Positions 29,567-53,713 of a DNA stretch of 64,000 bases are shown here, in pieces. The stretch's first letter is position 1. The number at the start of each line of letters is the position of its first letter. The DNA is from Candidatus Aldehydirespiratoraceae bacterium (GTDB lineage Bacteria > Actinomycetota > Acidimicrobiia > Acidimicrobiales > Aldehydirespiratoraceae), in the NCBI GenBank assembly GCA_965214565.1, contig OZ243951.1, positions 1,281,017-1,345,016 of the forward strand. Direction: 5' to 3'. A program made the translations under genes and the position numbers. The notes below the pieces were generated by a model, which worked only from the letters and a program-made list of their open reading frames with translations, had not been told where the DNA came from and did not search any database.

Positions 29567-32500
29567 TCAGCCCCAGCAGACAACGGTGCCGTCAGCACGC
29601 AACCCGCAGGTATGGTCCGAGCCGGCAGCGACTGATTTGAACGAGTGGAGCTCGTCCGTCGGCGTTTCGTCGACGGCGGGGTCGACTAGCAAGTCGACTG
29701 GTACGTCGAATGGCACGTTGATTGCACCGTCTGCGTTTGAACCCCAGCAGACGACCCTGTTGTCGAGGCGCAGTCCGCACGAATGTTCATCACCAGAGGT
29801 GACAGCTTGGAACAAACCGCTGGGTGCGTTGATCTGGCCATCGGAATTCCATCCCCAGCAGGTGATTGTGCCATCGGTGCGCAAGCCGCACCAATAAGCC
29901 GAACCGGCCGAGACAGCTTGGAACGAACCTTCCGGCGCAGCGACCATCCACCTGCCAATATCGAAATAGTCGTTGACTCCCCAGCAGGTGATTGTGCCAT
30001 CGGTGCGCAACCCACACGAAAAAAAGTCGCCGACGGCGACGGCTTGGAACGAGCCCTCCGGCGCATCGTTCACCTCAGCGTCCATGACATCGGCGAGCAC
30101 GTCGTTGCCTCCCCAACAGGTGATTGTGCTATCGGTGCGAAGCCCGCACGAATGAACCAGACCGGCGGCGACGGCGGTGAACAGATCGGGCGGGTGCCGG
30201 GTCTCACCGAAATCGTCGCTGCCCCAGCAGAAAACGGTACCGTCCGTGCGCAGCCCGCAGGAATGGGCCGCACCAGTGACGACGGCTTGAAATGTGCCTG
30301 CCGGTGCGTTCGTCTCGCCGTTGAAGTCAGAGCCCCAGCAGGTGATTGTGCCATCGGTGCGCAAGCCGCACGAAAAAAAATCGCCGGTGGCAACCGTTTG
30401 GAACGAGCCTTCAGGCGCATCGCTCTGCCCTGATTCGTTGTTACCCCAGCAGGTGATCGTGCTGTCGCTGCGAATCGCGCAGGTGTTGCCGTATCCGGCA
30501 GCGACGGCTCGGAATTCGACGGGCGATATGTCGCGTTCTCGGGAGTAGTTGTTGCCCCAGCAGATGATGGTGGCGTCGTCGCGGATGGCGCAGGTGTGGT
30601 GCCCGCCTGCGGCGATCGCTCTGAACGTGCCGGTGGGTGCGCTGGTCTGTCCGTTCCAGTTGGAGCCCCAACAGTGGACCGTGCCGTTGAGACGCAGGCC
30701 GCACGAATGGTCATGACCAGCGGTCACGGCTTTGAAGAGTCCTCTGGGGTCGTCACTCTGCCCGTTGTTGTTGGAACCCCAGCAGCTGATCACCCCGTTC
30801 GTTCGCAGTCCACACGAATGAGCCAGGCCGGCATCAACAGCCTGGTACGCGCCCCCGCGAGCGTTAGTTTGGCCGTTCGGGGAGGCTCCCCAACAGCTGA
30901 GCGTTCCATCGGTTCGTATCCCACAGGTGTGGTTCCGGCCGGTGGTGATGGAATGGAACAAGAAAGCTGGCGCATTGGTCTGGTTGCTGATGTGTTCGCC
31001 CCAACAGATGACGATGCCGTCTATGCGCAGCCCACACGAAAAGTTCGCTCCGGTGGAGACGCTATGGAACGAGCCCGCAGGAGCATCACCCTGGCCGAAC
31101 CCGTTGCCGCCCCAACAGGTGATGCTGTTGTCGACGCGGACCCCGCAGGAGTGTCGGTCGTTAACACTCGCGGATTTGAACGAGCCCGTGGGGGCGGTTG
31201 TCCGCCCGTAGTCGCTATTGCCCCAGCAGGTGACGGTGTCGTCTGTGCGTATCGCGCACGTATGGTGTGCATCTGCGGCAAGCGTTTTGAACGAGCCTGC
31301 GGGTGCATCAGTTGTTCTGGTGAAACCGTAACCCCAGCAGGTGACGGTGCCATCGGTCCGTACCCCGCACGTTTGGTTTGCTCCGGCGGAGACCGCTTGG
31401 AACGAACCCGGCGGCGCATTGATCTGGCCGTGTTCGTTGCTGCCCCAACAGGTGACGGTGCCATCTATGCGCAACCCGCACGAGTGGCCCCAGCCCGAGC
31501 CGGCAGCGACGGCCTTGAACGAACCCGGCGGCGCGGAGGATTGCCCGACGGCATTGTTGCCCCAGCAGGTGACGGTGTCATCGGTGCGCAGGCCGCACGA
31601 ATGCAGTCCACCGGCGGAGACCGCTTGGAACGAACCCGGCGGCGCATCGATCTGGCCGTGTTCGTTGCTGCCCCAACAGGTGACGGTGCCATCTATGCGC
31701 AATCCGCACGAGTGGTTTCCGTTGCCACCGTAGTATCCGCCACCGGCCGACACCGCTTCGAATCTACCGGTGGGTGAGGTGGTCTGCCCGCGTGAGTTGT
31801 TGCCCCAACACTTGATCGTGCCGTCGGTGCGCAGTCCGCAGTTGTGATCGAGACCGGCATCGACCGCATCGAATCTACCGGTGGGTGAGGTGGCTTGCCA
31901 GTGCCAGTTGCCGCCCCAGCAGGTGACCGAATTGTCGGTGCGGAGTCCACACATGTGGCTCCCGCCAGCGGTGATGCCCTGGAAGGTACCCGTCGGTGGT
32001 TCTGCTTGCAGAACGTTGTTGTGGCCCCAGCAGGTGAGGGTGTCATCGGTGAGTATCCCGCACGCGTGGTGTGTGCCGGCCGCGACTGATTTGAACGAGT
32101 AGATCTCGGTTGTCGGGGTGTCGTCGAGGGTGGGGTGACATGTCGGGGTTTGGGGGTCGATCGTCACCTCCGGTTCGCCCTGGTAGCGGTACAGGAAGGT
32201 GATCAGGTGCGAACGAGTCAGGGTGGTGTCGGGCGAGAACGTTGTGGCTGAGGTCCCGTTTGTGATCCCGTTTGCGAACATCCACGAGACGGGTGCCTGC
32301 CGCCAGTCTCTGACCACGTCGGTGAACTGATGTGGGCCTGCTTCGGGTTCGCCTGCCAGGCGGTAAAGGAAGGCCGCCAGTTCGGCGCGGTTGAGCGTCT
32401 TCTCGGGAGAGAACTTCGTGGCTGAGGTGCCGGTCGTGATACCGGCCTCGAGCATCCACGAGACAGCGGGGTTCTGGGGCTCGACGGTCACGTCGGTGAA

Positions 32501-32770
32501 CGAATGGGGCTCAGCTGAGGGCTGGGCCTGCATGTTCCAGAGGATCTGTGCGGTCTCGCCCCGTGACACCGGCGCGTCCGGCGAGAAGCATGCACCGTCG
32601 AGGCCTGTGATCCCTTGGTCCACGGACCACTGGACCGCATTCGTGTAGTAGGTGTCTTCGCCCACATCGCCGTACCCGGCCACACCAGCCGCCGGCGAGC
32701 CCGAGACCATCAACGAGGCAGCTGCCAGGCTCAGCACCAACCCGCACAAACCAAGCAGTCGGAGCTTCAT
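29567..32770 (-). CDS. Secreted SLH-domain protein with 22 RCC1-like beta-propeller blades
   Basis: Signal peptide 'MKLRLLGLCGLVLSLAAASLMV' and three SLH-like segments ('FSPD..V.R.E.A.FLY'). I counted 22 repeats ending in 'CWG' ('HSCGLRTDGT(V/I)TCWG.N..GQ'). Confidence 0.85.
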   Translation of the reverse strand: MKLRLLGLCGLVLSLAAASLMVSGSPAAGVAGYGDVGEDTYYTNAVQWSVDQGITGLDGACFSPDAPVSRGETAQILWNMQAQPSAEPHSFTDVTVEPQNPAVSWMLEAGITTGTSATKFSPEKTLNRAELAAFLYRLAGEPEAGPHQFTDVVRDWRQAPVSWMFANGITNGTSATTFSPDTTLTRSHLITFLYRYQGEPEVTIDPQTPTCHPTLDDTPTTEIYSFKSVAAGTHHACGILTDDTLTCWGHNNVLQAEPPTGTFQGITAGGSHMCGLRTDNSVTCWGGNWHWQATSPTGRFDAVDAGLDHNCGLRTDGTIKCWGNNSRGQTTSPTGRFEAVSAGGGYYGGNGNHSCGLRIDGTVTCWGSNEHGQIDAPPGSFQAVSAGGLHSCGLRTDDTVTCWGNNAVGQSSAPPGSFKAVAAGSGWGHSCGLRIDGTVTCWGSNEHGQINAPPGSFQAVSAGANQTCGVRTDGTVTCWGYGFTRTTDAPAGSFKTLAADAHHTCAIRTDDTVTCWGNSDYGRTTAPTGSFKSASVNDRHSCGVRVDNSITCWGGNGFGQGDAPAGSFHSVSTGANFSCGLRIDGIVICWGEHISNQTNAPAFLFHSITTGRNHTCGIRTDGTLSCWGASPNGQTNARGGAYQAVDAGLAHSCGLRTNGVISCWGSNNNGQSDDPRGLFKAVTAGHDHSCGLRLNGTVHCWGSNWNGQTSAPTGTFRAIAAGGHHTCAIRDDATIICWGNNYSRERDISPVEFRAVAAGYGNTCAIRSDSTITCWGNNESGQSDAPEGSFQTVATGDFFSCGLRTDGTITCWGSDFNGETNAPAGTFQAVVTGAAHSCGLRTDGTVFCWGSDDFGETRHPPDLFTAVAAGLVHSCGLRTDSTITCWGGNDVLADVMDAEVNDAPEGSFQAVAVGDFFSCGLRTDGTITCWGVNDYFDIGRWMVAAPEGSFQAVSAGSAYWCGLRTDGTITCWGWNSDGQINAPSGLFQAVTSGDEHSCGLRLDNRVVCWGSNADGAINVPFDVPVDLLVDPAVDETPTDELHSFKSVAAGSDHTCGLRADGTVVCWG

Positions 32771-32867: not shown

Positions 32868-35800
32868 CTACGGGACGGTTACCTGGTCGCCGGATTGGGT
32901 GTTGGTGTCGTAGGTGGAGAGCACTTCGCCGGTGCAGCCGATGGAGTTGCAGGCGCTGACCTTGGCGACATAGGTGCCCGGGGCTAGGCCGGTGACGGTG
33001 TAGGTCTGGGTGCCGATCGCGACTGTCGTCTCGCCGCTGGAGCCTCGAGCCCCGGCTTGGGAGGGGAACCACCGCACCTTGTAGGTGGTGACGCCGTCGA
33101 GCCCCTGTCCGCCGGCTTCCCAGGTGATGACTTTGGTGTTGTCGGGTTCGCTGGCGGTTGCGTCGTTGATCCGCACGGCGACGATCGACACGTTGGTCGG
33201 GATGCCTGCCGTCTTGAGGATGGCGGCATACCCGGAGGTGCCCACGGACCCCGAGCGTGTCACGGCCCTGACCCTCACTTCGTAGCTCGCGCCGACTTCG
33301 AGGTCCTGGATCTGTGCGGTCAGCGCGCCGAGCGGGAAGTCGGTTCCTGCTGTTTCGCTGTCGCCGTCGACGGTCTGCCAGACGTGTGCAGGGTAGCGGA
33401 CGTCGGGTACTGGTCTGTCGGGGTCGGCGAGGCGACGGTACTGCACTTCGTATCCGGTGATCGGGGGTCCACCGTTGGTTTGGGTGACGGCGGACCAGCT
33501 GACCGTGAGTTGTGTGCCGTCTCCGGGTGTTCCGTCGCTGTTGACGGTCGCGGCGGCGGCGGTGACCGTTGCCGGCGCGGGCGGCACCGACGAGGTGAAT
33601 CCGCTGATCTCGTGGCTGTACCCGCTGCTGCCGACGGCGTTGACCGCGCGGATTATCACGAAGTAGTTGATGCCGTCTTTGAGTCCGGTGATGGTGTGGC
33701 GGTTGGCGGGTGCGTCGATCCGGATCTCGGATCCGAACTGGCCGCTGTCACCTTCTGCGTATCTGAGCAGGTAGTGGGTGATGGGTGTGCCGCCGTCGTC
33801 TGGCGGGTTCCAGGTCACGGTCAGCAGCCGGAATCCCGTCTCGATGTCGATGTTGGTTTTGGATTCGGTTTCGTCGGCACCGATGCTGGCGGGTTGTGTG
33901 GCCGGGGTTGCCGAGGTCTGGGCCCAGGGTCCGCCTTCGTTCGGGCTCGGGTCGGCCGTGGCGGCGTCGCCGTCGTGGTCGTTGGTTGCTCGGACTCGTA
34001 TGTCGAAGGAGACGCCTCGTCCGGTTGCGGAGCCGCTGCGACGGTCTTTGAGCCCGGTGATGGTGAAGCTTCGGGTGGCGATGTCGTTGGCTGCGAGGGT
34101 GACTTCGGTCCAGTCCCCTGCGCGTATTTCGTCGTTGGTGTCCAGTGAGGTTCGGGGCACGAAGGACTCTCGGTATTCGAGGACGTAGCCGAGCACTGGG
34201 CTGGTGCCGTTGGCGGCGGGCGGGTCCCAGGTGACGAGCAGCGATTCGGGGTCGACGACTGCTGACGTGTCGCCGGTTTCGACTGCTGGGGGCGGGCCTG
34301 CGGTGAGGTTGCGCGGGGCGTCGGGCACGGCCTTGGGTATCGCGGTCACTTCGGCTGAGGGTTGGCTCTTGCCGGAGGCGGATACTGCTTTGACCGACAC
34401 GGTGTAGCCGAAGCCGTTGGTGAGCCCGGTGATGGTTGTTGAGGTGACTGTGCCGGCGACGTTGATCTGTTCGGGTGCTCCGCCTGATGCGTAGGTGATT
34501 TCGTAACCGGCGATTGTGCTTCCGCCGGTGCTGGTGGGTGGGGCCCAGGTGACTTGCAGGGCTTGATGGGCGGACACGACTCCGTTTGCGTCCAGGGTCG
34601 GGGGTCCCGGTGGCTGTACGGGGGTGGCGGTGGCCGAGGCCCAGAGCCAGGGGGCCGTGGGGCTGGTCTTGATATTGACTGAGCGGACTCTCACCTCGCA
34701 GGGCTGTCCGTTCTCGAGTCCGGTGATGGTGATCGTGTAGGTCTCGGTCGGGACGTTGGGGACATCGACTCGGCCGGCCGGGTTGCCGGGGATTCCGCTG
34801 GTGACCCAGCCGGTGCTGCCGCTGCTGGTGGTGCAGTTGCGTTCGACTCTGTAGCTTTCGACGGGTTCGCCGCCGTCGTCTTGCGGGGCTCCCCATTTGA
34901 CGACGAGTTCTGTGCCTGAGGTTTCTGAGACGGTGACTGCGAGGTTCGTGGGCAGTCCGGGGGCGACCGTGTCGGGGCTGATCGGGTCGCCGTTGGGCGC
35001 GGGGGTACGGGGGCCTGCGCCGGCGGCGTTGATGGCGGTGATCCATACGTAGTACGCCGAGGGGTTGGCGGTGGTGGTGTTGCGCAGTCCGGTGATGGTG
35101 TGGGTGCGCGCGGCCGGGTCTGCGATTTCGTGTTGGGACGGCTCGACTCGGCGGTCGGCGGTCCATTGGACGAGGTATCCGGTGATGTCGCTGCCGCCGT
35201 CGTCGGTGGGTGCTTCCCAGGTGAGGGTCAGTTCGGTGTTGCCGGGTTGGGCGTTGAAGTTGCCGACCAGTCCTGGTGTGGTTGACGGGGTGCCTGTCGT
35301 GTCTGCCGACCATGGTCCGGTGCCTGTGGCGTTTATGGAGGCGACTCTGAGCGTGTATTCGGTGCCTTTGGTGAGGCCGGTGATTGTGGTTGTTGCGGTT
35401 GTGGTGCTCTGTTGTCGGGTTGTGGCGTAGTCTTGGTCGCCTGATTTCCACTGTACGACGTAACTCGTCACCGCGGTTCCTCCGCTGATGGCGGGCGGGG
35501 TCCAGGTCACGGTCAGTTCGGTGCCGTCTCCAGTCGGTTGGGCTGCGACGTCTGTCGGGGCTTGGGCTTTGGTGTTGACCAGTGCGCGGTAGAGGCGGGC
35601 GACGAACGATCCCATTTGTTCGCGTGTCACTCCGGCTCTCGGGGCGAAGGTTGTCGGTGTGGTTCCGGTGGTGACTTCTAGGCCGTAGATCTGGGCGATT
35701 GCTTTGCGCTGTTCGGATGAGCGCCGTCCGATGTCGATGAAGTTGGTGCTGACGACCGGAGGTTCGAAGCCTCTGATCGCTTTGTAGAGGCGCACTAGGA

Positions 35801-36338
35801 ACAGGGCCATGTGGGATCGCAGCACCGGGTCCTTTGGCGAGTATGTGGTGGTGGTGGTGCCGGTGGTGATCTTGAGTCCGTAGATGCGGGCTATGTCGTC
35901 GACGGCGAAGGAGTCTTCTGGTATGTCGGTGAAGGGTGTCTCGACTATTTCTGCTTCTGCGCCGGTGACTGCCCGATAGGTGCGGGCCATGAAGGCAGCC
36001 ATTTCTTCGCGGGTTACTTCTTCTTTGGGCCGATAGCGGTTACTCGACGGATTGGTGATGCCGAGCTCGACGAGGCAGCGGATGTCTTCGTAGGCGAAGC
36101 TGTTGGGGTCGACGTCGGCGAATTCCAGCGTGCCTTCGTCGGATGGGCAGGTGATCTCGCCGCTGTCGTCGGAGGAGTTGTCGGTGGTTTGCGCGGTGGC
36201 TGTGGTTGTGGCCAGCCCGAGCGAACCGGCGAGCATGATGGGGGCGACCGCTGCTCGCATGAGCCGTTGCAGGTTTGCCCGAGTCGTGCGTTTTGACATC
36301 GGTGCTCGCGGTGTCCTGTCGCTGGCTGCTGATCTCAT
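32868..36338 (-). CDS. SLH-Fn3 cell-surface protein, paralog D (full length, signal peptide)
   Basis: 1156 aa with signal peptide 'AAVAPIMLAGSLGLATTTATAQ' and three SLH segments. A long array of Fn3-like repeats follows ('L.V.W..P...GG..I.GY...'). Confidence 0.85.
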   Translation of the reverse strand: MRSAASDRTPRAPMSKRTTRANLQRLMRAAVAPIMLAGSLGLATTTATAQTTDNSSDDSGEITCPSDEGTLEFADVDPNSFAYEDIRCLVELGITNPSSNRYRPKEEVTREEMAAFMARTYRAVTGAEAEIVETPFTDIPEDSFAVDDIARIYGLKITTGTTTTTYSPKDPVLRSHMALFLVRLYKAIRGFEPPVVSTNFIDIGRRSSEQRKAIAQIYGLEVTTGTTPTTFAPRAGVTREQMGSFVARLYRALVNTKAQAPTDVAAQPTGDGTELTVTWTPPAISGGTAVTSYVVQWKSGDQDYATTRQQSTTTATTTITGLTKGTEYTLRVASINATGTGPWSADTTGTPSTTPGLVGNFNAQPGNTELTLTWEAPTDDGGSDITGYLVQWTADRRVEPSQHEIADPAARTHTITGLRNTTTANPSAYYVWITAINAAGAGPRTPAPNGDPISPDTVAPGLPTNLAVTVSETSGTELVVKWGAPQDDGGEPVESYRVERNCTTSSGSTGWVTSGIPGNPAGRVDVPNVPTETYTITITGLENGQPCEVRVRSVNIKTSPTAPWLWASATATPVQPPGPPTLDANGVVSAHQALQVTWAPPTSTGGSTIAGYEITYASGGAPEQINVAGTVTSTTITGLTNGFGYTVSVKAVSASGKSQPSAEVTAIPKAVPDAPRNLTAGPPPAVETGDTSAVVDPESLLVTWDPPAANGTSPVLGYVLEYRESFVPRTSLDTNDEIRAGDWTEVTLAANDIATRSFTITGLKDRRSGSATGRGVSFDIRVRATNDHDGDAATADPSPNEGGPWAQTSATPATQPASIGADETESKTNIDIETGFRLLTVTWNPPDDGGTPITHYLLRYAEGDSGQFGSEIRIDAPANRHTITGLKDGINYFVIIRAVNAVGSSGYSHEISGFTSSVPPAPATVTAAAATVNSDGTPGDGTQLTVSWSAVTQTNGGPPITGYEVQYRRLADPDRPVPDVRYPAHVWQTVDGDSETAGTDFPLGALTAQIQDLEVGASYEVRVRAVTRSGSVGTSGYAAILKTAGIPTNVSIVAVRINDATASEPDNTKVITWEAGGQGLDGVTTYKVRWFPSQAGARGSSGETTVAIGTQTYTVTGLAPGTYVAKVSACNSIGCTGEVLSTYDTNTQSGDQVTVP

Positions 36339-36506
36339 CGCTGCTCCGTTCCGGTGTCGGCTTCTCGCGTTTCGCCGACTGTTGTCGAATCTACCGCTTA
36401 TGCGCTCAACATTCAGAACTATGGGCGCTTGATGCCCTCGATTCTGGGTTGTCCGACGGGATGCACCGGTTCAGGCTGTGGCGAGCCGCTCCCTGCTGAC
36501 CGATCG

Positions 36507-36570
36507 GTGACTTACGTGCGCCACCGTAACACCAAAACCATTCAGAGACTATCGAATCAGACCAACAGCG
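36507..36570 (+). repeat. Partial copy of the conserved leader element found upstream of the small coiled-coil genes
   Basis: 'gtgacttacgtgcgccaccgtaacaccaaaaccattcagagactatcgaatcagaccaacagcg' closely matches the reverse complement of about 47950-48020 and also 43085-43150. It ends 1 nt before the recombinase stop codon. Confidence 0.6.
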
Positions 36571-36571
36571 A

Positions 36572-37633
36572 TTAGGAAGGAGGGAGTACGAAGTCTGCCC
36601 ATCGCTGCATCACTTCGCGCCTGCGCTCGATCAGGTCTGAGCGTTGGTAGCTTCTCTCGGTGCTGTTGCCGACGACGTGACCCAGACACGCTTCTGCGAG
36701 GTCACGTTCGAGGCCTTGGTCTGCGCAGTAGGTGCGGAATGTCGATCTGAGACCATGGGTGGTGCCTTCGCCGAGTATCTGCTTGCGGACTGTCCTCAAC
36801 GAGTCGCTGTTGATTGCCTGATGAGGGTTGCGTGAAGCAGGGAACACAAACTCAGAGTCTCCGAGCGACGCATGGAACCTGGCCCCGCTTGTCCCGTGTC
36901 CCTTCCCGTAGAGAAGTTCCATGGCTTGGTTGCTCAGCGGTACTCTGTGCTCTGTTCTCGTCTTCGTGCGCTCTGCGGGTACGGTCCAGGTCCTCTCTTC
37001 GCGATCGATCTCCTCCCAACGCGCTCCGCTGGCTTCTTTCGCCCTGGTGGCAGTCAGGAGAATGAACAGCAGGGCTCGCCCTGACCCTCCTTTGTCTCGC
37101 AGACGTGCCGAGAGTTGTTCAGCAACCTCTCGGGCCTCGGGCCAGGGTGTATAGGGATGATGAGTGGGCCTGTAGATCAAGTCTCGTCTCTTCATGCCGC
37201 GCATCACAGCAGAGCCGGCAGCAGGATTGGCTTCTATGGCTCCTGCGAGCATTGCTTCATCGAGGACTTCTCTAATGTTCGACAGAATCTTCTTCGGAAC
37301 GCTGATTCCACCGTTTTTCGAGGCCGCGAGGGCATCGAGGACGTGACCCAGCGTTATGGTCTCGATGGGCATTGACCACAACGTTCCGGCATAGGTCCGC
37401 ATCCTTACTTCCCATTCTGTCCGCGTCTTCTCGGCACATACCTTGACGGCGAGGGTGTGAGTCGCCCACGATCCGAAGGTGCCTGACTCAGGAGCGGACT
37501 CAGGGACTTCTTGATTGTCGGTTGGGGCCGTATCGCGCTCCGTCATTGCGCCCGATGGGGGTCGCTGGCCTTCACTGAAGGCATGCCTTCCATTTGGCAG
37601 ATTCTCAATATCTGTCCATTGTTTTGCTACCAT
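36572..37633 (-). CDS. Tyrosine site-specific recombinase (phage-integrase family)
   Basis: 353 aa. Catalytic signature residues are present: R in 'LLTATRAKEAS', K in 'TKTRTEHRVPL', HxxR in 'HGLRSTFRT', H in 'CLGHVVG' and Y in 'ERSYQRSD'. SD 'aaggag' lies 7 nt before the ATG. Confidence 0.85.
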   Translation of the reverse strand: MVAKQWTDIENLPNGRHAFSEGQRPPSGAMTERDTAPTDNQEVPESAPESGTFGSWATHTLAVKVCAEKTRTEWEVRMRTYAGTLWSMPIETITLGHVLDALAASKNGGISVPKKILSNIREVLDEAMLAGAIEANPAAGSAVMRGMKRRDLIYRPTHHPYTPWPEAREVAEQLSARLRDKGGSGRALLFILLTATRAKEASGARWEEIDREERTWTVPAERTKTRTEHRVPLSNQAMELLYGKGHGTSGARFHASLGDSEFVFPASRNPHQAINSDSLRTVRKQILGEGTTHGLRSTFRTYCADQGLERDLAEACLGHVVGNSTERSYQRSDLIERRREVMQRWADFVLPPS

Positions 37634-40774: not shown

Positions 40775-40909
40775 GTAATACCAAGATGTAGTCGGCTGGC
40801 TCCTGGGCTCTCCGCCGGGCCCAGAGAGCCGCTGGCTACTTAGCTGCAATTGCAACTAAGCATTAGTTCAGAGCCCGAGGTCTTGGCCTCGGGCTCTAAC
40901 TATTTTTCC
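40775..40909 (+). repeat. Conserved ~135-bp 3' element shared by cassettes A, B and C
   Basis: It starts right at the stop codon: 'gtaataccaagatgtagtcggctgg...cttagctgcaattgcaactaag...agagcccgaggtcttggcctcgggctct...ttttt'. Near-identical reverse-complement copies lie at 44099-44236 and 49684-49816. Confidence 0.8.
40870..40907 (+). terminator. Putative intrinsic terminator of cassette A
   Basis: 11-bp stem 'agagcccgagg'/'cctcgggctct' with a 6-nt loop, then 'aacta' and 'ttttt'. Confidence 0.45.
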
Positions 40910-41133
40910 CACGCTCCAACCCTCCACCATGTATTGGAGACCGACCCGGCAGGCCACAAGAACCCACCGGCAAGCGCAGACTTCCAACTCAGCGAAGCGG
41001 ATGCTGGTTTGGCAACAGAAAGTGCGGTCAGGTTCGATCGTCGGCTCGACGGCAAGGAAGACCCCGCCCGCTGCCCCTCACCCGAGTTCGACGGGGCCAG
41101 CCACGACAAGTTCTCCGCGCACAGCTCCTTGAG

Positions 41134-41206
41134 CGCTCCAGGCTGTCCGATCGTGTCGGTGAGGCTGCTGTGGATATCGGTTCGCTGCTGTTCTGTCAGG
41201 ACCAGG
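41134..41206 (-). pseudogene. 5' remnant of a type-2 small coiled-coil gene
   Basis: It encodes 'LVLTEQQRTDIHSSLTDTIGQPGA', matching the N-termini of the 42621-43040 and 48073-48513 products. Homology then stops and the GTG start is replaced. Confidence 0.45.
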
Positions 41207-41212
41207 TTGGTT

Positions 41213-41405
41213 CCCCCGTCCAATCCACCTGGTCGATTCAGGGGGCAAGTGGTGTACGAGCCTCACCGTAGCACCAAAACTATTCAGAGGCACTCGAATC
41301 AAATAAGAGCAGCCGACGCGCCGTCTGGGGTGGTACGGTGGAGGCACTCGCTGGGCAATGGCGACAACTTCCCTTCACAAGCAGCGACAACGAAGGGAAC
41401 TTGCC
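41213..41405 (+). promoter_or_regulatory. Conserved ~190-bp leader/promoter element, copy 1
   Basis: 'ccgtccaatccacctggtcgattcaggggg...caccgtagcaccaaaactattcagagg...aatggcgacaacttccc...acgaagggaacttgcc' directly precedes the ATG at 41406. Confidence 0.55.
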
Positions 41406-41813
41406 ATGGCGGCAGGCGAGCAGGAGCGTTTTGAGCTCCTCAACAGTTTGATCGAAGCGCTCGGGGAGGATGTGGCCTACAAACTCATGAACTCACTACC
41501 CCCATTCTCCTGGGACCAGGTCGCTACCAAAGAAGACCTCAACACACTGGCCACAGCGATCACCGCGAAGTTCGACCAAGTCGACGCACAATTCAAGTCC
41601 GTCAACGCACAGTTCGAGATGGTTGCGGCGGAGTTCGTGAACCTGCGCGGAGAGATCGCCAAAGAGGTCGCAGGTCTATCGACCAAGATCGGCGTGCTCG
41701 ACAGCAGCTTCTCCAAGAAGATCACCGACCAGACCCGAATCATGGTGACGATGATCGCCGGGTTCTCGTTATCCGTGTGCGCAGCCATGGCCGGCGGCAT
41801 CCTCTTCGCCTGA
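41406..41813 (+). CDS. Type-1 small tail-anchored coiled-coil protein (DUF1640/CCDC90-like by resemblance)
   Basis: 'MAAGEQERFELLNSLIEALGED...WDQVATKEDLNTLA...AQFKSVNAQFEMVAAEF...' with a C-terminal TM 'MVTMIAGFSLSVCAAMAGGILFA'. SD-like 'gaaggg' lies upstream. Confidence 0.65.
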   Translation: MAAGEQERFELLNSLIEALGEDVAYKLMNSLPPFSWDQVATKEDLNTLATAITAKFDQVDAQFKSVNAQFEMVAAEFVNLRGEIAKEVAGLSTKIGVLDSSFSKKITDQTRIMVTMIAGFSLSVCAAMAGGILFA

Positions 41814-41838
41814 CACCCGACCGGAGGGCCGGGGACTG

Positions 41839-42029
41839 CCCATCCAATCCGTCTGGTCGATTCAGGGGAAAGTGGATTACAGGCATCACCGTGACACCAA
41901 AGCCATTCAGAGGCCCCCGAATCAAATTACAGCTGCCAACACACTTTCTTGGTGATACGGTACGGGGTACTCGCTGCGCAATGGCGACAACTTCCCTCCA
42001 CAAGCAGCTACAACGAAGGGAACCTTGCC
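41839..42029 (+). promoter_or_regulatory. Conserved leader/promoter element, copy 2
   Basis: 'cccatccaatccgtctggtcgattcaggggaaagtgg...caccgtgacaccaaagccattcagagg...' precedes the ATG at 42030. Confidence 0.55.
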
Positions 42030-42500
42030 ATGACGGCAGGCGAGCAGGAGCGATTCGGGCTCCTCAACAGTTTCATCGAAGCGCTCGGAGAGGAAGCGGC
42101 CCACAAATTCATGGATGTCCTACCCCCATTCTCCTGGGACCAGGTCGCAACCAAAGACGACCTCAACGCCCTAGCCACGTCGATCACCGCGAAGTTCGAC
42201 CAAGTCGACGCACAATTCAAGTCCGTCAACGCACAGTTCGAGTCGGTCAACGCACAGTTCGAGATGGTCAACGCACAGTTCGAGATGGTTGCGGCGGAGT
42301 TCGTGAACCTGCGCGGAGAGATCGCCAAGGTCGAGGGCAACCTCGCCAAAGAGATCGCAGGGCTCTCGACCAAGATCGGTGAACTCGACAGCAGCTTCTC
42401 CAAGAAGATCACCGATCAGACTCGAATCATGGTGACGATGATCGCCGGGTTCTCGTTGTCCGTGTGCGCAGCCATGGCCGGCGGCATCCTCTTCGCCTGA
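42030..42500 (+). CDS. Type-1 small tail-anchored coiled-coil protein (longest heptad array)
   Basis: 'MTAGEQERFGLLNSFIEALGEE...' with four tandem 21-bp units at 42210-42293 (FKSVNAQ/FESVNAQ/FEMVNAQ/FEMVAAE). The C-terminal TM is identical to the 41406 copy. Confidence 0.65.
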   Translation: MTAGEQERFGLLNSFIEALGEEAAHKFMDVLPPFSWDQVATKDDLNALATSITAKFDQVDAQFKSVNAQFESVNAQFEMVNAQFEMVAAEFVNLRGEIAKVEGNLAKEIAGLSTKIGELDSSFSKKITDQTRIMVTMIAGFSLSVCAAMAGGILFA

Positions 42501-42620
42501 TACCCGACCGGAGGCCAGTGGACTGCTAATGGTCCCAGACATCGGGATCAGGGCCCCTCTTGGGTGGCGTAGATGCGCCAGCCGAGGAAATGGGGCTCTT
42601 CGGTGCGGGGAGACGAAGCC

Positions 42621-43040
42621 TCAGACGGCTAGGAAGATCGAGCCGCAGATGGAGACGGTCATCACCGCGATTGCCACGGCGAACCCCCAAACCTCTCTGC
42701 TGCGTCTTTCGGACAATTCGGCGAATCGCGTGTCGACCTTCGCGAATCGGGTGTCGATCGCCGCGAATCGGGTGTCGATCGCCGCGAACTGCTTCTGGAT
42801 CTCCGCGAACTGCTCTGCGAGTTGTTCGCGGAGCTGCGCGAACTGGACATCCATCTTGGCGTTGAGTGCGACGAATCCAGCCTGGGTCTTGGTCTCGAGG
42901 TCTGCGAGGTCGCGTTTGGTGGCGAACTGTTCCCATCCTCCTGGTGGTTGCTGTGCCATTAGGAATTCCGCTTCCGGCTGCCCGATCGTGTCGGCAAGGC
43001 TGCTGTAGATGTCGGTTCGCTGCTGTTCTGTCAGGGCCAC
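42621..43040 (-). CDS. Type-2 small tail-anchored coiled-coil protein
   Basis: GTG start, 'MALTEQQRTDIYSSLADTIGQPEAEF...ATKRDLADLETK...FAAIDTRFAAIDTRFAKVDTRFAELSER' and a C-terminal TM 'AVAIAVMTVSICGSIFLAV'. Confidence 0.65.
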   Translation of the reverse strand: MALTEQQRTDIYSSLADTIGQPEAEFLMAQQPPGGWEQFATKRDLADLETKTQAGFVALNAKMDVQFAQLREQLAEQFAEIQKQFAAIDTRFAAIDTRFAKVDTRFAELSERRSREVWGFAVAIAVMTVSICGSIFLAV

Positions 43041-43241
43041 TTCGGTCCCCCATCCAATCCGTCTGGTTGATTCTGGGGGAAGTGGCTAACGGGGGCCACC
43101 GTAACACCAAAGCCATTCAGAGACAACCGAATCAGACCAACAGCGCTCAACGCACCGTACGGATGATACGGTACGGGGGTACTCGCTGCGCAATGGCGAC
43201 AACTTCCCTCCACAAGCAGCTACAACGAAGGGAACCTTGCC
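43041..43241. promoter_or_regulatory. Conserved leader element, copy 3 (divergent intergenic region type-2 <-> type-1)
   Basis: A 201-bp spacer between divergent starts at 43040 and 43242. It is near-identical to the reverse complement of 47873-48072. Confidence 0.6.
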
Positions 43242-43635
43242 ATGACGGCAGGCGAGCAGGAGCGATTCGGGCTCCTCAACAGTTTGATCGAAGCGCTCGG
43301 AGAGGATGCGGCCCACAAACTCATGGATGCCCTACCTCCAGTATCTTGGGATCAGGTCGCAACTAAAGACGACCTCAACGCCCTGGCCACAGCGATCACC
43401 GCGAAGTTCGACCAAGTCGACGCACAATTCAAGTCCGTCAACGCACAGTTCGAGTCGGTCAACGCACAGTTCGAGATGGTTGCGGCGGGGTTCGTGAACC
43501 TGCGCGGAGAGATCGCCAAAGAGGTTGCGGGGATATCCAAGAAGATCACCGACCAGACTCGAATCATGGTGACGATGATCGCCGGGTTCTCGTTATCCGT
43601 GCGCAGCCATGGCCGGCGGCATCCTCTTCGCCTGA
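43242..43635 (+). pseudogene. Type-1 small coiled-coil gene with 2-bp deletion frameshift in the TM-coding end
   Basis: '...ttatccgtgcgcagccatgg...' here versus 'ttatccgtgtgcgcagccatgg' in the 41406 copy. The frame therefore runs on to 43982 and the ancestral stop lies at 43633-43635. Confidence 0.6.
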
Positions 43636-43688
43636 CCAACACCGGCTTGCGGTTCTTTGAGAGGCGATATGCTCCGCGGGCACCGCGT

Positions 43689-43832
43689 TGCCTCGACGCC
43701 CCAAAGAACCACGGATCGTTTGTGCACATCACGCTCCATCGGCAAAGTCTCGTTCTCCCGCAACCGCACCAACTCAGCGCGCTCATCGGTGCTCAACCCA
43801 CCAGCACGTTCGGCGACATCGCGGCGCATCCA
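43689..43832 (-). mobile_element. Remnant of an IS3-family transposase OrfA
   Basis: The minus-strand translation 'WMRRDVAERAGGLSTDERAELVRLRENETLPMERDVHKRSVVLWGVEA' resembles the leucine-zipper/frameshift region of IS3 OrfA (...ELxRLRxENxxLxxERDILKKAxAFF). No intact transposase or terminal repeats are seen. Confidence 0.45.
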
Positions 43833-43842
43833 ATTCCCCACG

Positions 43843-44091
43843 TCGATCACTGCGAAGTTCGACCAAGTCGCCGTCCAGTTCACCGCGGTGGCGGCAGAGC
43901 TCGTGAGCGAGCGCGGAGAATTCGCCAAAGTCGAGGGCAACCTCACCAAAGAGATCGCAGGGCTATCGACCAAGATCGGTGAACTCGACAGCAGCTTCTT
44001 CGAAAGGACCCCCGAACAGACCCGAACCTTGATACTGATGTTGGCGGGCTTCTCGGTGGCCGTGTGCGCCACCATGGTGCTTTCTGGTTGA
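43843..44091 (+). pseudogene. 3' fragment of a divergent type-1 small coiled-coil gene
   Basis: 'ITAKFDQVAVQFTAVAAELVSERGEFAKVEGNLTKEIAGLSTKIGELDSSF...LAGFSVAVCATMVLSG'. The 5' part is replaced by the IS3 scrap. Confidence 0.45.
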
Positions 44092-44098
44092 GGGGGTC

Positions 44099-44236
44099 AG
44101 GAAAAATAGTTAGAGCCCGAGGCCAAGACCTCGGGCTCTGAACTAATGCTTAGTTGCAATTGCAGCTAAGTAGCCGGCGGCTCGCTGGGCCCGGCGGAGA
44201 GCCCAGGAACCAGCCGACTACATCTTGGTATTTTCC
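44099..44236 (-). repeat. Conserved 3' element of cassette B
   Basis: Reverse complement of the 40775-40909 element with few mismatches. Confidence 0.8.
44102..44139 (-). terminator. Putative intrinsic terminator of cassette B
   Basis: Stem 44112-44122/44129-44139 ('agagcccgagg'/'cctcgggctct') and a T-tract on the minus strand (44102-44106). Confidence 0.45.
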
Positions 44237-47476: not shown

Positions 47477-47872
47477 TCAGGCGAAGAGGATCCCGCCGGC
47501 CATGGCTGCGCAGACGGCTAGCGAGAACCCGCCGATCATTGTCACCATGATCCGAGTCTGGTCGGTGATTTTCTTGGATATGCCCGCGATCTCTTTGGCG
47601 ATCTCTCCGCGCAGACTCACAAACTCCGCAGCCACCATCTCGAACTTCGCGTTGACCGACTCGAATTGTGCGTTGACGGACTTGAATTGTGCGTCGACTT
47701 GGTCGAATTTCGCGGTGATCGCTGTGGCCAGCGTGTTTAGGTCGTCTTTAGTTGCGACCTGATCCCAAGATACTGGAGGTAGCGAGTCCATGAGTTTGTG
47801 GGCCACATCCTCTCCGAGCGCTTCGATCAAACCGTTGAGGAGCTCAAAACGCTCCTGCTCGCCTACCGCCAT
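47477..47872 (-). CDS. Type-1 small tail-anchored coiled-coil protein
   Basis: 'MAVGEQERFELLNGLIEALGED...FKSVNAQFESVNAKFEMVAAEF...MVTMIGGFSLAVCAAMAGGILFA'. I prefer the ATG at 47872, which sits behind the same leader as the other copies. Confidence 0.65.
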   Translation of the reverse strand: MAVGEQERFELLNGLIEALGEDVAHKLMDSLPPVSWDQVATKDDLNTLATAITAKFDQVDAQFKSVNAQFESVNAKFEMVAAEFVSLRGEIAKEIAGISKKITDQTRIMVTMIGGFSLAVCAAMAGGILFA

Positions 47873-48072
47873 GGCAAGTTCCCTTTCGTTGTAGTAGCTG
47901 GTGGAGGGAAAGTTGTCGCCATCGCGCAGCGAGTACACGCACAATATCATCCGCACGCCGACTTGGGCGCTATTGGTCTGATTCAATCGTCTCTGAATGG
48001 TTTTGGTGTTACGGTGACGCCGGTAAGTCACTTCCCCCCGAATCGACCAGACGGATTGGATGGGGTACCGAA
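47873..48072. promoter_or_regulatory. Conserved leader element, copy 4 (inverted relative to copy 3)
   Basis: A 200-bp divergent spacer between starts at 47872 (-) and 48073 (+). Confidence 0.6.
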
Positions 48073-48513
48073 GTGACCCTTACAGAACAGCAGAGAACCG
48101 ATATCTACAACAGCCTCGCCGACACGACCAGACAGCCGGGAGCGGAGTTCCTAATGGCACAGCAACCACCAGGAGGATGGGAACAGCTTGCCACCAAACG
48201 CGACCTCGCAGACCTCGAGACCAAGACCCAGGCCGCATTCGTCGAACACCGAGCCGCGCTAGTCGCGTTCAACGCCAAGATGGACCTCCAGTTCGCGCAG
48301 CTCCGCGAACAACTCGCTGAGCAGTTCGCGGAGATCCAGAAGCAGTTCGCGACGATCGACACCCGATTCGCTGCGATCGACACTCGGTTCGCGAAGGTCG
48401 ACACACGATTCGCCGAGTTGTCTGAGAGGCGCAGCAAAGAAGTTTGGGCGATCGCCGTAGCGATCGCAGTGATGACCGTTTCCATCTGCGGCTCAATCTT
48501 CCTGGCCGTCTGA
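48073..48513 (+). CDS. Type-2 small tail-anchored coiled-coil protein
   Basis: GTG start, 'MTLTEQQRTDIYNSLADTTRQPGAEF...FATIDTRFAAIDTRFAKVDTRFAELSER...AIAVAIAVMTVSICGSIFLAV'. Confidence 0.65.
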   Translation: MTLTEQQRTDIYNSLADTTRQPGAEFLMAQQPPGGWEQLATKRDLADLETKTQAAFVEHRAALVAFNAKMDLQFAQLREQLAEQFAEIQKQFATIDTRFAAIDTRFAKVDTRFAELSERRSKEVWAIAVAIAVMTVSICGSIFLAV

Positions 48514-48641
48514 GGTCCCCGCAACCGCAGCCAGAGCTTTCGGTTACAGGCGGAATGTCTAGGCGGAGGCTACTGACACAATGCCGACGTATAGTATGTC
48601 ATTAGACCGACGTAAACCTAGACGAGGAAGGACGATTACAG

Positions 48642-48977
48642 ATGGCCACGGTCGCAACTCTGTTGGATCACCTCTACGAGGGGGATGTGCTTGATGCCGT
48701 TGATCTGGCTCGGATCACAAAGACCAATCCTCGAAGTGTGTCCAGGTGGCGGTCTGAGGCGACAACTCCTAGGCGGGCCGCGGAGGACCTTCTGCTTGAA
48801 CTGCGAGCCGTCGTTGATCTGGCCCGTACCGTGATGAACGATGATGCAGCGAGATTCTGGCTGCGTTCGCCCAACCGCGACCTCGGATACAAGAAGCCAC
48901 TGGAACTCATAGCGGAGGGTGAGTACCGGCGGGTTGTCGACCTCCTGCTGGCACTGGCGGAGGGCGTCACTGCATAA
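48642..48977 (+). CDS. Xre/MbcA/ParS-type antitoxin (DUF2384)
   Basis: 111 aa with 'ARFWLRSPNRDLGYKKPLELIAEGEYRRVVDLLLALAEG', typical of the antitoxin partner of RES toxins. Its stop lies 1 nt before the RES ORF start. Confidence 0.75.
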   Translation: MATVATLLDHLYEGDVLDAVDLARITKTNPRSVSRWRSEATTPRRAAEDLLLELRAVVDLARTVMNDDAARFWLRSPNRDLGYKKPLELIAEGEYRRVVDLLLALAEGVTA

Positions 48978-52800: not shown

Positions 52801-53269
52801 ACGTCGTAACCGACGTGCCCTGCGTGATCATCAACCCGTTAGGACTGATCCGCGCAATGTCATCAGCGTTGGGGTCACCCTCAACATCTTCGAACATGTG
52901 CTCCTCGACCGGCGCCTCCATCCCAGTGAGCACCGCGTAGGCATTCGCCATGAACGCCGCCATCTCAGAACGGGTCATGTCGTCGCCAGGACGGTACATG
53001 TCACCAGCATCGGAGATGCCCAGCTGTCGCAGGCATCGACTGTCGTCATAGGCAAAGCTGGATTCGGGTACATCCGAATAGGCCATCTCGCCGTCCGATG
53101 GGCACGATCCGCCGCTGGACTGCGCGGTCGCTGCGACCGTGGCCAAACCGAGACTGCCCGCGACGACGACAAAGGCCACCGCCATGCGCACTAGGCGAAG
53201 GACGCTCAACCGACTCGATCGGCTGGGCACCTTCACCGGCACTCCCTTTCCCGTTACTGCTGAACTCAT
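49817..53269 (-). CDS. SLH-Fn3 cell-surface protein, paralog C (full length; candidate expression locus)
   Basis: 1150 aa with signal peptide 'LVRMAVAFVVVAGSLGLATVAATAQ', three SLH segments and an Fn3 array. RBS 'ggag' lies before the ATG. Only this copy joins the shared 5' block to a secretion signal. Confidence 0.85.
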   Translation of the reverse strand: MSSAVTGKGVPVKVPSRSSRLSVLRLVRMAVAFVVVAGSLGLATVAATAQSSGGSCPSDGEMAYSDVPESSFAYDDSRCLRQLGISDAGDMYRPGDDMTRSEMAAFMANAYAVLTGMEAPVEEHMFEDVEGDPNADDIARISPNGLMITQGTSVTTYSPGDPVRRGHMALFLTRLYKAATGEDAPAGDTPFTDIGDRPDAEQAAIGSLFALGVTRGTSDTTYAPHGNVTREQMASFVARMYRAIDEMPDPAEAPGAPTGVEVAVSGDDGDALDVSWMAPEDSGTSDVSGYVVQWKSGGGDYSEDNQRSVDGMMSMFDGLTKGTAYMFRVAAMSDDGQSDWSDEASGTPGTVPGAVSNFAVAVGAASGTLNLSWAAPADDGGTPITGYVVQWATGRNAPDTAMINDGSATSYTITGLKTGVSYRVHIQAVNGAGDGAITAPADSGQAAVAPTTSVSSGTVRVVLPGPADTAFATGGVFKAVSWPTPTLGRGQNVLNYDIQRKCGKQTWPATHTDDGDRTDTQLPPEIAVAVQFAERSELLGGSLANGEECTYRVRANTYFDRATDGNTAKQQDADEPTLEGAWVTGTGTPLGAPGMPATVDAEVANGSLNVTWTAPMTTDTPPKVNDGGTAITGYKIAWASPATAPIGDTTVPATSSSYTITGLTNGLQYTVTIEAINARGASEAAGTTPAGRTPAAVPAAPSTIRVSQPPAPAPGQADNRGNVLIVTWSAPANNGTGTVTGYALQRRATVTSPTDPTPGVPGPVITDHAGTGTMYNAPILEEERGTSFDYRVRAINASGNGPWSAWASGIAAAALPGKVNVANIEIIPGSGSLTLTWTPAVGKGNDVTHYNVRYARNVQGIERWMSAGRVNASALPTKTITGLSNGVPYVVGITAVNAVGSSGEVETDGIDRPTHAMAAPRSVTAVPSATMNTDGRMIDVTWSAVANAVGYQVQYISTTSNPKGGWMTVDPTSITGAAVKQVGTDDLATFDAAKARKVTIGGLDEGTTYVVRVQAVTQGTVGGKSAGRALLGTPGFSAPVKAESTPATAPVITSFSQVDKTTTLRVAWTAPTNARTEGVTGYLVTWYPTATQVVGNRGSATVAADATSYDITGLTAFGQSITVTVAPVNKIGVGMATDGSDAVTLTPASS

Positions 53270-53713
53270 TGCTGCTCCATTCTTGGTTGGATTGTCTGGC
53301 TCTTCGCAGACGCCAGTCGAAATCTAGCGGTTATCCGCACCCGGCACCTTGCTGGGACACAGAAAACACCAATCGCGATCGGCATGCAAAGGTTAGCGCA
53401 GGCCGTTTTCTAACACAACCCACCCCCCGAGTCAACGACACAGGGGTTGGAAGAGGCGTCAGAAACGAATGGTGTCGGTCTAAAACCGCACATGTATTCA
53501 AGGCCCTCAGCATAACGCCACAATCAATAGCGCGCCATGCTTTCCCGGACTACTTGATGCACTGGGCCTCTTGTGGGGTTGCACAGAGCGGGGCGGGGGC
53601 TCGACTGAGGGGCGTTACGCTCGGTAGCGGCGGCCCGCCAGCCGCCACGGGGCCCACGGTTTCGGGCCCTGTGTCCCGTACGTTTGGCTGTCCCCCGACC
53701 CCATGGAAGCACC

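Follow-up and report, generated by a model that had tools for sequence, protein, structure and literature searches.

We find that two types of small-protein gene, type 1 (T1) and type 2 (T2), which recur among cassettes for S-layer homology (SLH)/fn3 proteins in a 64,000-nucleotide stretch of contig OZ243951.1 (hereafter the window), encode a single, fast-duplicating protein family in a 'Candidatus Aldehydirespiratoraceae' bacterium. Its members appear to be tail-anchored, probably trimeric beta-layer proteins. We propose that each gene would be equipped with its own promoter and a hairpin that gates translation, and that T2 would form the upstream part of an S-layer expression unit. Taken as a whole, this reading seems to us somewhat likelier to be right than wrong.

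The copies in the window form two groups (41134-44091 and 47477-48513). The first lies between the convergent 3' ends of the 5'-truncated cassettes SLH3' and SLH4'. The second, comprising T1c and T2b, lies just upstream of SLH4', with the T1c stop codon ~175 nt upstream of that cassette on the same strand. Gene copies, fragments, and spacer motifs had been reported in an earlier note on this DNA, and all were recovered in place, the genes and fragments by open reading frame (ORF) listing and tblastn. The features are as follows (aa, amino acids; dN/dS, ratio of nonsynonymous to synonymous substitution rates; UTR, untranslated region).

41134-41206 (-): T2 remnant, codons 1-24 only, ending after ...GGAGCG (tblastn, junction sequence)
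41207-41405 (unstranded): putative control region copy 1, bidirectional, the most diverged of the copies (repeat comparison, spacer-motif matches)
41406-41813 (+): T1a, intact, 135 aa (ORF listing, tblastn; dN/dS 0.12-0.26 versus other copies)
41839-42029 (+): putative control region copy 2, abutting the T1a stop codon and lacking a T2 gene on its left (repeats, motif matches)
42030-42500 (+): T1b, intact, 156 aa, with three additional heptads and one additional 14-residue block (ORF listing, alignment, tandem repeats)
42621-43040 (-): T2a, intact, 139 aa, GTG start (ORF listing, alignment, tblastn)
43041-43241 (unstranded): control region copy 3, putative promoter region (conserved motif blocks, predicted folds)
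43106-43098 (-): control region copy 3, T2-side TGTTACGGT (conserved motif block)
43164-43172 (+): control region copy 3, T1-side TGATACGGT (conserved motif block)
43087-43020 (-) and 43183-43262 (+): control region copy 3, predicted 5'UTR hairpins (folds)
43242-43635 (+): T1d, pseudogene, 2-nt deletion near 43600 within the membrane-anchor codons
43792-44091 (+): T1e, diverged C-terminal fragment (stalk and anchor) without a head or a family-type start codon (ORF listing, tblastn)
47477-47872 (-): T1c, intact, 131 aa (ORF listing, tblastn)
47873-48072 (unstranded): putative control region copy 4 (repeats, motif matches, folds)
48073-48513 (+): T2b, intact, 146 aa, GTG start (ORF listing, alignment, tblastn)

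Identity between copies is 75-96% over 250-400 nt. T2 and T1 stand head to head in three pairs around a spacer of ~200 bp (41206/41406, 43040/43242, and 48073/47872), and at 42030 only the T1 half of such a pair is present. T1d is classed as a pseudogene because its 2-nt deletion shifts the frame. At three or fewer mismatches, the first spacer motif has four sites in the window and the second has five, with none expected by chance for either; the fifth site, at 36522, lies outside the interval covered by the earlier note. Such a mixture of full copies, pseudogenes, and fragments would be expected if an ancestral unit had repeatedly duplicated and recombined unequally.

One family of small anchored proteins

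The earlier note had treated T1 and T2 as two families, but they align with each other over 138 columns (hhalign probability 98.8%, E = 1.4e-16) and are one. Both types follow a common plan: a head of ~30 residues, a PPxxW loop, the motif [V/F/L]-A-T-K-x-D-L, a stalk of heptads in which Phe occupies position a and Val/Ile position d, a basic patch (KKITDQTR or ERRSK/R), and, as anchor, a hydrophobic helix of 19-24 residues at the extreme C terminus. Residues P32, P33, W36, A40, T41, K42, D44, and L45 are invariant in both (alignments with 17 relatives per type). All T1/T2 genes contain 21-nt (heptad) tandem repeats; the number of heptads differs between paralogs, and lengths change by whole 21-nt units, in frame. 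Across paralogs, T2 proteins range from 105 to 206 aa and T1 proteins from 87 to 192 aa, while those of the window have 131-156 aa, ~110 residues of which are hydrophilic. In an AF2 monomer model of low confidence (pLDDT 65), two short helices lead through a loop into a single long one.

Purifying selection acts along the whole length of both proteins. Among the window copies dN/dS is 0.12-0.26, and median values over 561 T1 and 820 T2 pairs are 0.11-0.26, with 0.38 in one seven-pair bin. T1 and T2 are therefore true genes and not chance frames. The earlier note had named a lack of purifying selection as grounds for refuting its reading, and this lack is not seen (dN/dS ~0.1-0.26); the tail-anchored coiled-coil proteins it proposed are borne out as real genes by dN/dS, and in their architecture by hydropathy and heptads. 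That the small ORFs are chance frames in repeated DNA would find encouragement only in the repetitive context and the missing database name. The dN/dS values, the in-frame length changes, and hundreds of full-length homologs with the same architecture speak against it, and we regard it as refuted by selection and shared architecture, with a vanishingly small chance of being right.

Over windows of 19 residues, hydropathy peaks at the extreme C terminus (Kyte-Doolittle 1.95-2.43), a feature of 105 of the 114 T1 matches and 118 of the 120 T2 matches. A hydropathy scan of T1/T2 found no second hydrophobic or signal-peptide-like segment, and Lys/Arg are confined to the N-terminal flank of the anchor. 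We therefore infer tail-anchored proteins of the cytoplasmic membrane whose head and stalk lie on the cytoplasmic side.

No Pfam, NCBIfam, or PADLOC model matches T1 or T2 above threshold, and a PHROGs scan gave only weak matches to families of unknown function. We rejected the matches from these four databases as an identity for T1/T2: they are coiled-coil noise or function-less PHROGs. T1/T2 also lack matches to the XhlA haemolysin family (PF10779), which appears below threshold in 2 of 89 remote relatives, and to DUF883 in Pfam. A combined T1 and T2 profile, searched against 1.84 billion cluster representatives (clustered at 50% identity), recovered 5,880 proteins at E ≤ 1e-3, of which 1,543 reach E ≤ 1e-10; most have 130-200 aa and align end to end. 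ATKxD at residues 25-50 and a C-terminal hydrophobic helix occur together in 106 of 136 profile matches. The few named members come from Acidimicrobiales or Egibacteraceae and are all labelled "hypothetical protein." IMG/VR viral contigs hold no T1/T2 relatives, and we rejected a phage origin of the family on that ground.

The motif [aliphatic]-A-T-K-[polar]-[D/E] defines the beta-layer, which N-caps trimeric coiled coils (Hartmann et al. 2016, PMC4786415). In DUF1640 membrane proteins it is placed prominently at the start of the C-terminal stalk (PMC4786415). T1 and T2 carry this motif (A40, T41, K42, and D44 invariant) and, as in DUF1640, their stalk is followed by one C-terminal transmembrane helix; judging from the beta-layer coiled coils whose structures have been solved, they are probably trimers. 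PF07798, the DUF1640/CCDC90-like family, matches 14 of 89 remote representatives at E ≤ 0.01 (best 6.7e-9); its gathering score is reached by 1 of 10 remote relatives (33.7 versus 33.5 bits), and precomputed PF07798 matches are also present among relatives. The top PDB matches of a head-plus-neck profile, 6h9l_A and 5apz (a Tcar0761 construct), both arise through the ATKxD motif only, and the head part yields no significant alignment with 6h9l (domain score -1.2). The 6h9l_A entry is labelled only 'Uncharacterized protein'; we take it to be of the DUF1640 group. Full-length profiles against the PDB were discarded, swamped by apolipoprotein and haemagglutinin coiled coils. From these sequence comparisons, T1/T2 appear to be an unnamed superfamily branch distantly related to DUF1640/MCUR1. 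The resemblance to DUF1640/CCDC90 suggested by the earlier note thus holds for motif, architecture, and superfamily, but it includes neither a PF07798 match nor a detectable likeness of the heads.

Proteins of the DUF1640 group (MCUR1, CCDC90B, yeast Put6/Put7, and prokaryotic members) share with T1/T2 the order of head, beta-layer at the start of the stalk, and C-terminal membrane helix (PMC4786415). In T1/T2, by contrast, the heads show no detectable similarity to these proteins and only the motif aligns; multicopy pairs and arrays, a leader that sequesters the Shine-Dalgarno (SD) sequence, and a link to SLH genes are unreported for DUF1640. Membership in DUF1640 would supply no mechanism, because its prokaryotic members have no assigned function. 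Tcar0761 of Thermosinus (PDB 5APZ) and GCN4-MATKDD fusions have the same six-residue motif, which N-caps a trimeric coiled coil in their solved structures; Tcar0761, a DUF3782 protein, has 14 consecutive nonad repeats, whereas T1/T2 have one beta-layer followed by ordinary heptads and the anchor.

Two further groups are similar in outline. YqjD, ElaB, and YgaM of Escherichia coli (DUF883), which are tail-anchored and ribosome-associated, are likewise small and of regulated expression, and combine a helical portion in the cytoplasm with one C-terminal membrane helix; the beta-layer motif and the variation in heptad number set T1/T2 apart. By description, the Bdr proteins of Borrelia are also a large set of paralogous small inner-membrane proteins, with a central repeat region of variable copy number and a C-terminal hydrophobic anchor, whose genes are scattered among other variable gene families. 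They belong to another phylum, have another repeat motif, and are plasmid-borne.

Nothing here overturns current understanding. New for proteins of the DUF1640-like kind are the paired or arrayed genes, the dedicated SD-sequestering leader, and the conserved place before SLH/fn3 genes. The analysis provides the anatomy of, and a testable regulatory model for, a large unnamed family (at least 5,880 clusters, mostly actinobacterial) that connects the mitochondrial scaffold proteins MCUR1/CCDC90B to bacteria. It also aids annotation, since these genes are now called "hypothetical protein" and their fragments confuse gene calling around SLH cassettes.

The putative control region

We compared the regions upstream of 34 T2 and 19 T1 genes from ~12 genomes. 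The first 95-100 nt upstream travel with the gene, and farther upstream the copies are unrelated (identity 0.44-0.49, taken as the baseline of unrelated sequence). The upstream stretch overall diverges about as third codon positions do, and only short blocks are conserved; the striking conservation of the leader within the window is therefore mostly recent duplication. Of the conserved ~200-bp leader that the earlier note described, the motif copies and short blocks stand, but as a whole it is conserved only to the degree of third codon positions.

The first conserved block, TGnTAC(G/T)GT, is read as an extended -10 element; T10, A11, C12, and T15 are invariant in the 34 T2 upstream regions, and a similar block precedes T1. 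The second is (G/A)CCACUUCCCC(C) in T2 and AUGGCGACAACUUCCC in T1. The ribosome-binding site (GGGAG/GAAGGGA) and the start codon are also conserved. For both types, RNAalifold predicts that the CUUCC block base-pairs with the SD and that the bases beside it pair with the start codon. In the T2 hairpin, standard pairs occupy 96.7% of cells, compared with 43-57% when the 3' strand is slid. Two of its pairs have changed in a compensatory manner, from GCCAC/GUGGC to GUCAC/GUGAC, and this is seen in two unrelated copies; its covariation score was reached by 1 of 500 shuffles. The T1 consensus fold (18 pairs, -16.4 kcal/mol) covers the SD and AUG. Single-sequence folding z-scores are -1.3 to -4.0. 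Rfam 15 gave no matches at gathering score in the whole window and none at E ≤ 1 in 41100-43300, and the hairpin and leader are absent from the remote family members examined.

We thus read the leader as a bidirectional promoter with SD-sequestering 5'UTRs, not as a free-standing structured RNA. Judging from the conserved blocks, the 200-bp spacer would contain two back-to-back promoters with -10 blocks ~60 bp apart (43098-43106 and 43164-43172). According to the predicted folds, each is probably followed by a 5'UTR that gates translation by burying the SD and start codon. Each gene would be a self-contained module, made of a TGnTAnnnT promoter-like element (extended -10) and a 5'UTR of 55-75 nt in which the ribosome-binding site would be paired to CUUCCC(C) and the start codon to the bases beside it; two modules placed back to back would constitute the "200-bp leader." A local invertible switch was considered and rejected: apart from PPxxW...ATK, a coding stretch that T1 and T2 share as paralogs, no inverted repeat occurs around the control region.

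Hairpins that bury the SD and start codon, as predicted here, are also a feature of type I toxin mRNAs (hok, tisB, aapA1), in which structure in the 5'UTR occludes the ribosome-binding site of a small membrane-protein gene. T1/T2 might accordingly be membrane-acting toxins or abortive-infection-type modules, silenced by their hairpins and multiplied as selfish or defense elements. Their products are small and membrane-anchored, the genes are multicopy and lie in variable regions beside Xre/MbcA-type antitoxin, AbiE, Fic, PIN, and SIR2 genes, and remote relatives show weak matches (1e-9 to 7e-13) to function-less PHROGs. However, type I toxins are typically shorter than 60 aa, whereas these proteins have 125-190 aa, two to five times as many, with a conserved soluble head and a long stalk; the mostly hydrophilic window proteins are not small hydrophobic peptides. 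Judging from motif positions, the divergent transcripts would not overlap, and no antisense RNA partner is evident. PADLOC gives no credible match, viral contigs in IMG/VR hold no relatives, and remote relatives sit amid housekeeping genes and lack the hairpin. We consider a toxin function improbable.

Association with SLH/fn3 genes

The scan across genomes used one genome per species; L001 and similar names are locus labels. It found 42 T2 loci, all in Acidimicrobiia/Acidimicrobiales and most in 'Ca. Aldehydirespiratoraceae', which includes a sponge-symbiont clade (PMC11706023). Those T2 loci that are not lone genes are clusters, and SLH genes are present in all 10 of the long loci that contain T1. 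Several of the metagenome-assembled genomes have names that we take to denote sponge metagenomes.

On the same strand as T2, or as a form (T2') without the SD and codons 1-23, a full-length, signal-peptide-bearing SLH/fn3 gene starts 81-216 nt beyond its end in L001/L007, L006, L010 (two sites), L020, L033, and L038, representing at least five Acidimicrobiales genomes. No terminator-like site was found between T2 and SLH in L007. In L008 and L039, T1 and an SLH gene point away from each other across 270-331 nt; there, the SLH gene therefore takes the place of T2. The cassette link is thus real: the part of the earlier note's claim that recurs in other genomes stands, although about half of T2's relatives stand alone, at a distance from any SLH gene.

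The window preserves traces of the same arrangement upstream of its gene SLH2:

32868-36338 (-): SLH2
36339-36484 (-): homolog of the T2-to-SLH intergenic region, forming the proximal 5' region of SLH2 (90% over 146 nt to L007:10413-10558)
36505-36568 (-): fragment of a T2-type promoter, oriented toward SLH2 and lacking a T2 gene (motif match at 36522)
36572-37633 (-): tyrosine recombinase (Pfam Phage_integrase 6.4e-16, and Phage_int_M)

The intergenic homolog is also 83-87% identical to L010, L019, L038, and L011. The promoter fragment shares 89-92% identity with T2 upstream regions in the window and L007 (92% to the L007 T2 promoter block). The recombinase abuts this fragment and is oriented divergently to SLH3', a truncated cassette; its L007 counterpart is the 3' end of the same recombinase (92% identity). 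The same recombinase adjoins T1/T2/SLH in L001/L007, and a relative adjoins them in L020. From the three stretches that match L007, we conclude that the window carries a deletion derivative of the order recombinase, T1, control region, T2, SLH. The putative T2 promoter now abuts SLH2.

We propose the following model. T1 and T2 are two sublineages of one Acidimicrobiales protein family. The ancestral S-layer expression unit would have consisted of a control region with T1 on one side and, on the other, T2 followed by a full-length SLH/fn3 gene, which the T2 promoter would serve from upstream. In this unstable locus, copies, pseudogenes, and fragments would then have been scattered among silent cassettes through duplication, deletion, and unequal recombination. 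A T2 module that forms the upstream portion of an S-layer expression unit would account for the co-occurrence with cassettes. SLH-linked copies might be cotranscribed and coexpressed with the genes for the very large S-layer proteins and take part in exporting or anchoring those proteins. By analogy with the role proposed for MCUR1, the protein may be a scaffold on the cytoplasmic face of the membrane; we hold this view weakly because many members have no SLH partner. The apparent expression-site promoter of a multicassette S-layer locus in uncultured sponge symbionts would offer a handle on whether these bacteria vary their surface.

Several findings weigh against this model. About half of the T2 relatives occur away from SLH genes in unrelated settings (between serS and crcB; beside AbiE genes; in a SIR2/Fic/PIN/methylase island), so that the family is in part a genome-wide repeat. 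The remote relatives examined are all lone genes amid unrelated metabolic or housekeeping or defense genes. These lone relatives argue that the basic function of the protein is independent of SLH proteins. For a cytoplasmic scaffold, moreover, there is no obvious reason for a link to a secreted S-layer protein, and no T1/T2 module precedes the full-length SLH5. A generic sigma-70 scanner found no promoter in the region; the promoter calls therefore rest on conservation and on the TAnnnT/extended -10 pattern, which is typical of high-G+C Actinobacteria. The covariation and structure check that the earlier note had suggested for the leader yielded compensatory changes in T2, but these are thin (two pairs and four cells), and the T1 helices are nearly invariant and say nothing either way on pairing. 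As to family placement, T1/T2 lack a PF07798 match even at E ≤ 1.

The earlier note had also raised the possibility of portable recombination substrates. The modules might be mainly homology blocks or recombination sites for SLH cassette switching, possibly through the tyrosine recombinase, with coding secondary. Copies and fragments do flank both silent cassettes, and the recombinase abuts the control region in the window, L001/L007, and L020. T2 is broken at codon 24 in the window remnant and in T2' of two other genomes, and both silent cassettes start at the identical nucleotide near GCG followed by ..TTC..ATGGC. Set against this are the purifying selection along both proteins and the many lone copies far from SLH genes. 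No alternative junctions were seen in the available assemblies, which are contigs only and too weak to exclude them; the public runs with this locus offer only short DNA-type contig sets. Furthermore, portable substrates are not needed, since the cassettes carry their own homology: at the 5' end ~500 nt of conserved sequence that codes for SLH domains, and on the 3' side a flank of 133 nt (98% identical) that includes a terminator. We regard a primarily recombinational role as unlikely.

A combination of the two ideas can be imagined, in which the T1-control region-T2 unit would be the fixed, membrane-proximal half of a variable S-layer system of sponge-associated Acidimicrobiia. The T2 promoter would mark the expression site, the recombinase would move promoterless, signal-less SLH/fn3 cassettes in at GCG followed by TTCATGGC, and the coiled-coil protein would be needed in the cytoplasm to export or organize the expressed variant. 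We consider this scenario rather unlikely.

The operon-like order of T2 and SLH would also suit an extracellular stalk that acts, in the manner of archaeal SlaB, as a pedestal of the S-layer and keeps the SLH/fn3 canopy up, or spaced, over the membrane. A trimeric coiled coil with a C-terminal membrane helix is the plan of SlaB, and stalk length varies by whole heptads among the paralogs (T2 105-206 aa, T1 87-192 aa). The proteins, however, have no signal peptide or second hydrophobic segment that could serve as an export signal, and with charges only on the N-terminal flank of the anchor, the positive-inside rule predicts a cytoplasmic N terminus. SLH domains already fix the large proteins to the wall, and many family members have no SLH neighbor. 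A pedestal is, in our judgment, as improbable as a toxin. The preferred reading remains that of a cytoplasmic, tail-anchored family whose T2 module would head an S-layer expression unit.

Cassette boundaries and neighboring sequences

SLH3' and SLH4' (37691 and 47299; compare 52955) begin at the identical nucleotide, ...GCG followed by TTCATGGCGAAC, and their upstream flanks differ. The T2 break at codon 24 occurs in three settings beside a similar string, GCG followed by GAATTCCTAATGGC (window 41134, L003:2920, L006:17395, and L010:5896). This recurrent GCG junction could be a recombinase core site or a coincidence. At the other end, an inverted repeat of 133 nt (98% identical; 40777-40909 and 44100-44232) lies just downstream of SLH3' and SLH4'. 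Each arm includes a terminator with a 12-bp stem and a T-run, at 40870-40897 (+) and 44139-44112 (-). The repeat looks like a shared 3' boundary of the cassettes. A similar 3' flank apparently follows SLH5, judging from ORF translations at 44154 and 49737. The single "joint" reported in the contig sets has sides of 31 nt and was dismissed as an assembler repeat artifact.

Copy number appears to vary elsewhere. In L003 (1400-15500; ERZ25071132 ctg813150), at least 14 T1/T2' units follow one another in tandem, about every 1 kb, beside duplicated cysS fragments, and T1 ranges from 108 to 168 aa within this array; the related assemblies L002/L004 have only three units at the same place. Word depth in the public contig sets, ~10 in neighboring sequence, is raised ~5-fold over T2b (48020-48620) and ~4-fold over the 5' end and upstream region of SLH5 (52828-53428). 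There are therefore several further near-identical copies of both segments in the sample.

The ~180 bp between T1d and T1e (43655-43833) are 81% identical to L007:5935-6115. The minus strand reads ...ERAELVRLRENE...MERDV..., by eye like the N-terminal part of an IS3-type transposase, and the enclosing ORF gave no Pfam match. Between T2b and the 3' end of SLH5 lies a gene for an Xre/MbcA/ParS-type antitoxin (48642-48977 (+); Pfam 4.5e-11). It is followed by a short ORF, to ~49150, that has no Pfam match and by eye resembles the truncated start of a RES-type toxin. Directly downstream of SLH2, 29567-32770 (-) encodes an SLH protein with 22 RCC1 repeats in place of fn3. Just upstream of the SLH cluster, 26453-28114 (+) encodes a protein with Schlafen/AlbA_2, HATPase_c_4, and wHTH domains, a combination that we take to be defense-like.

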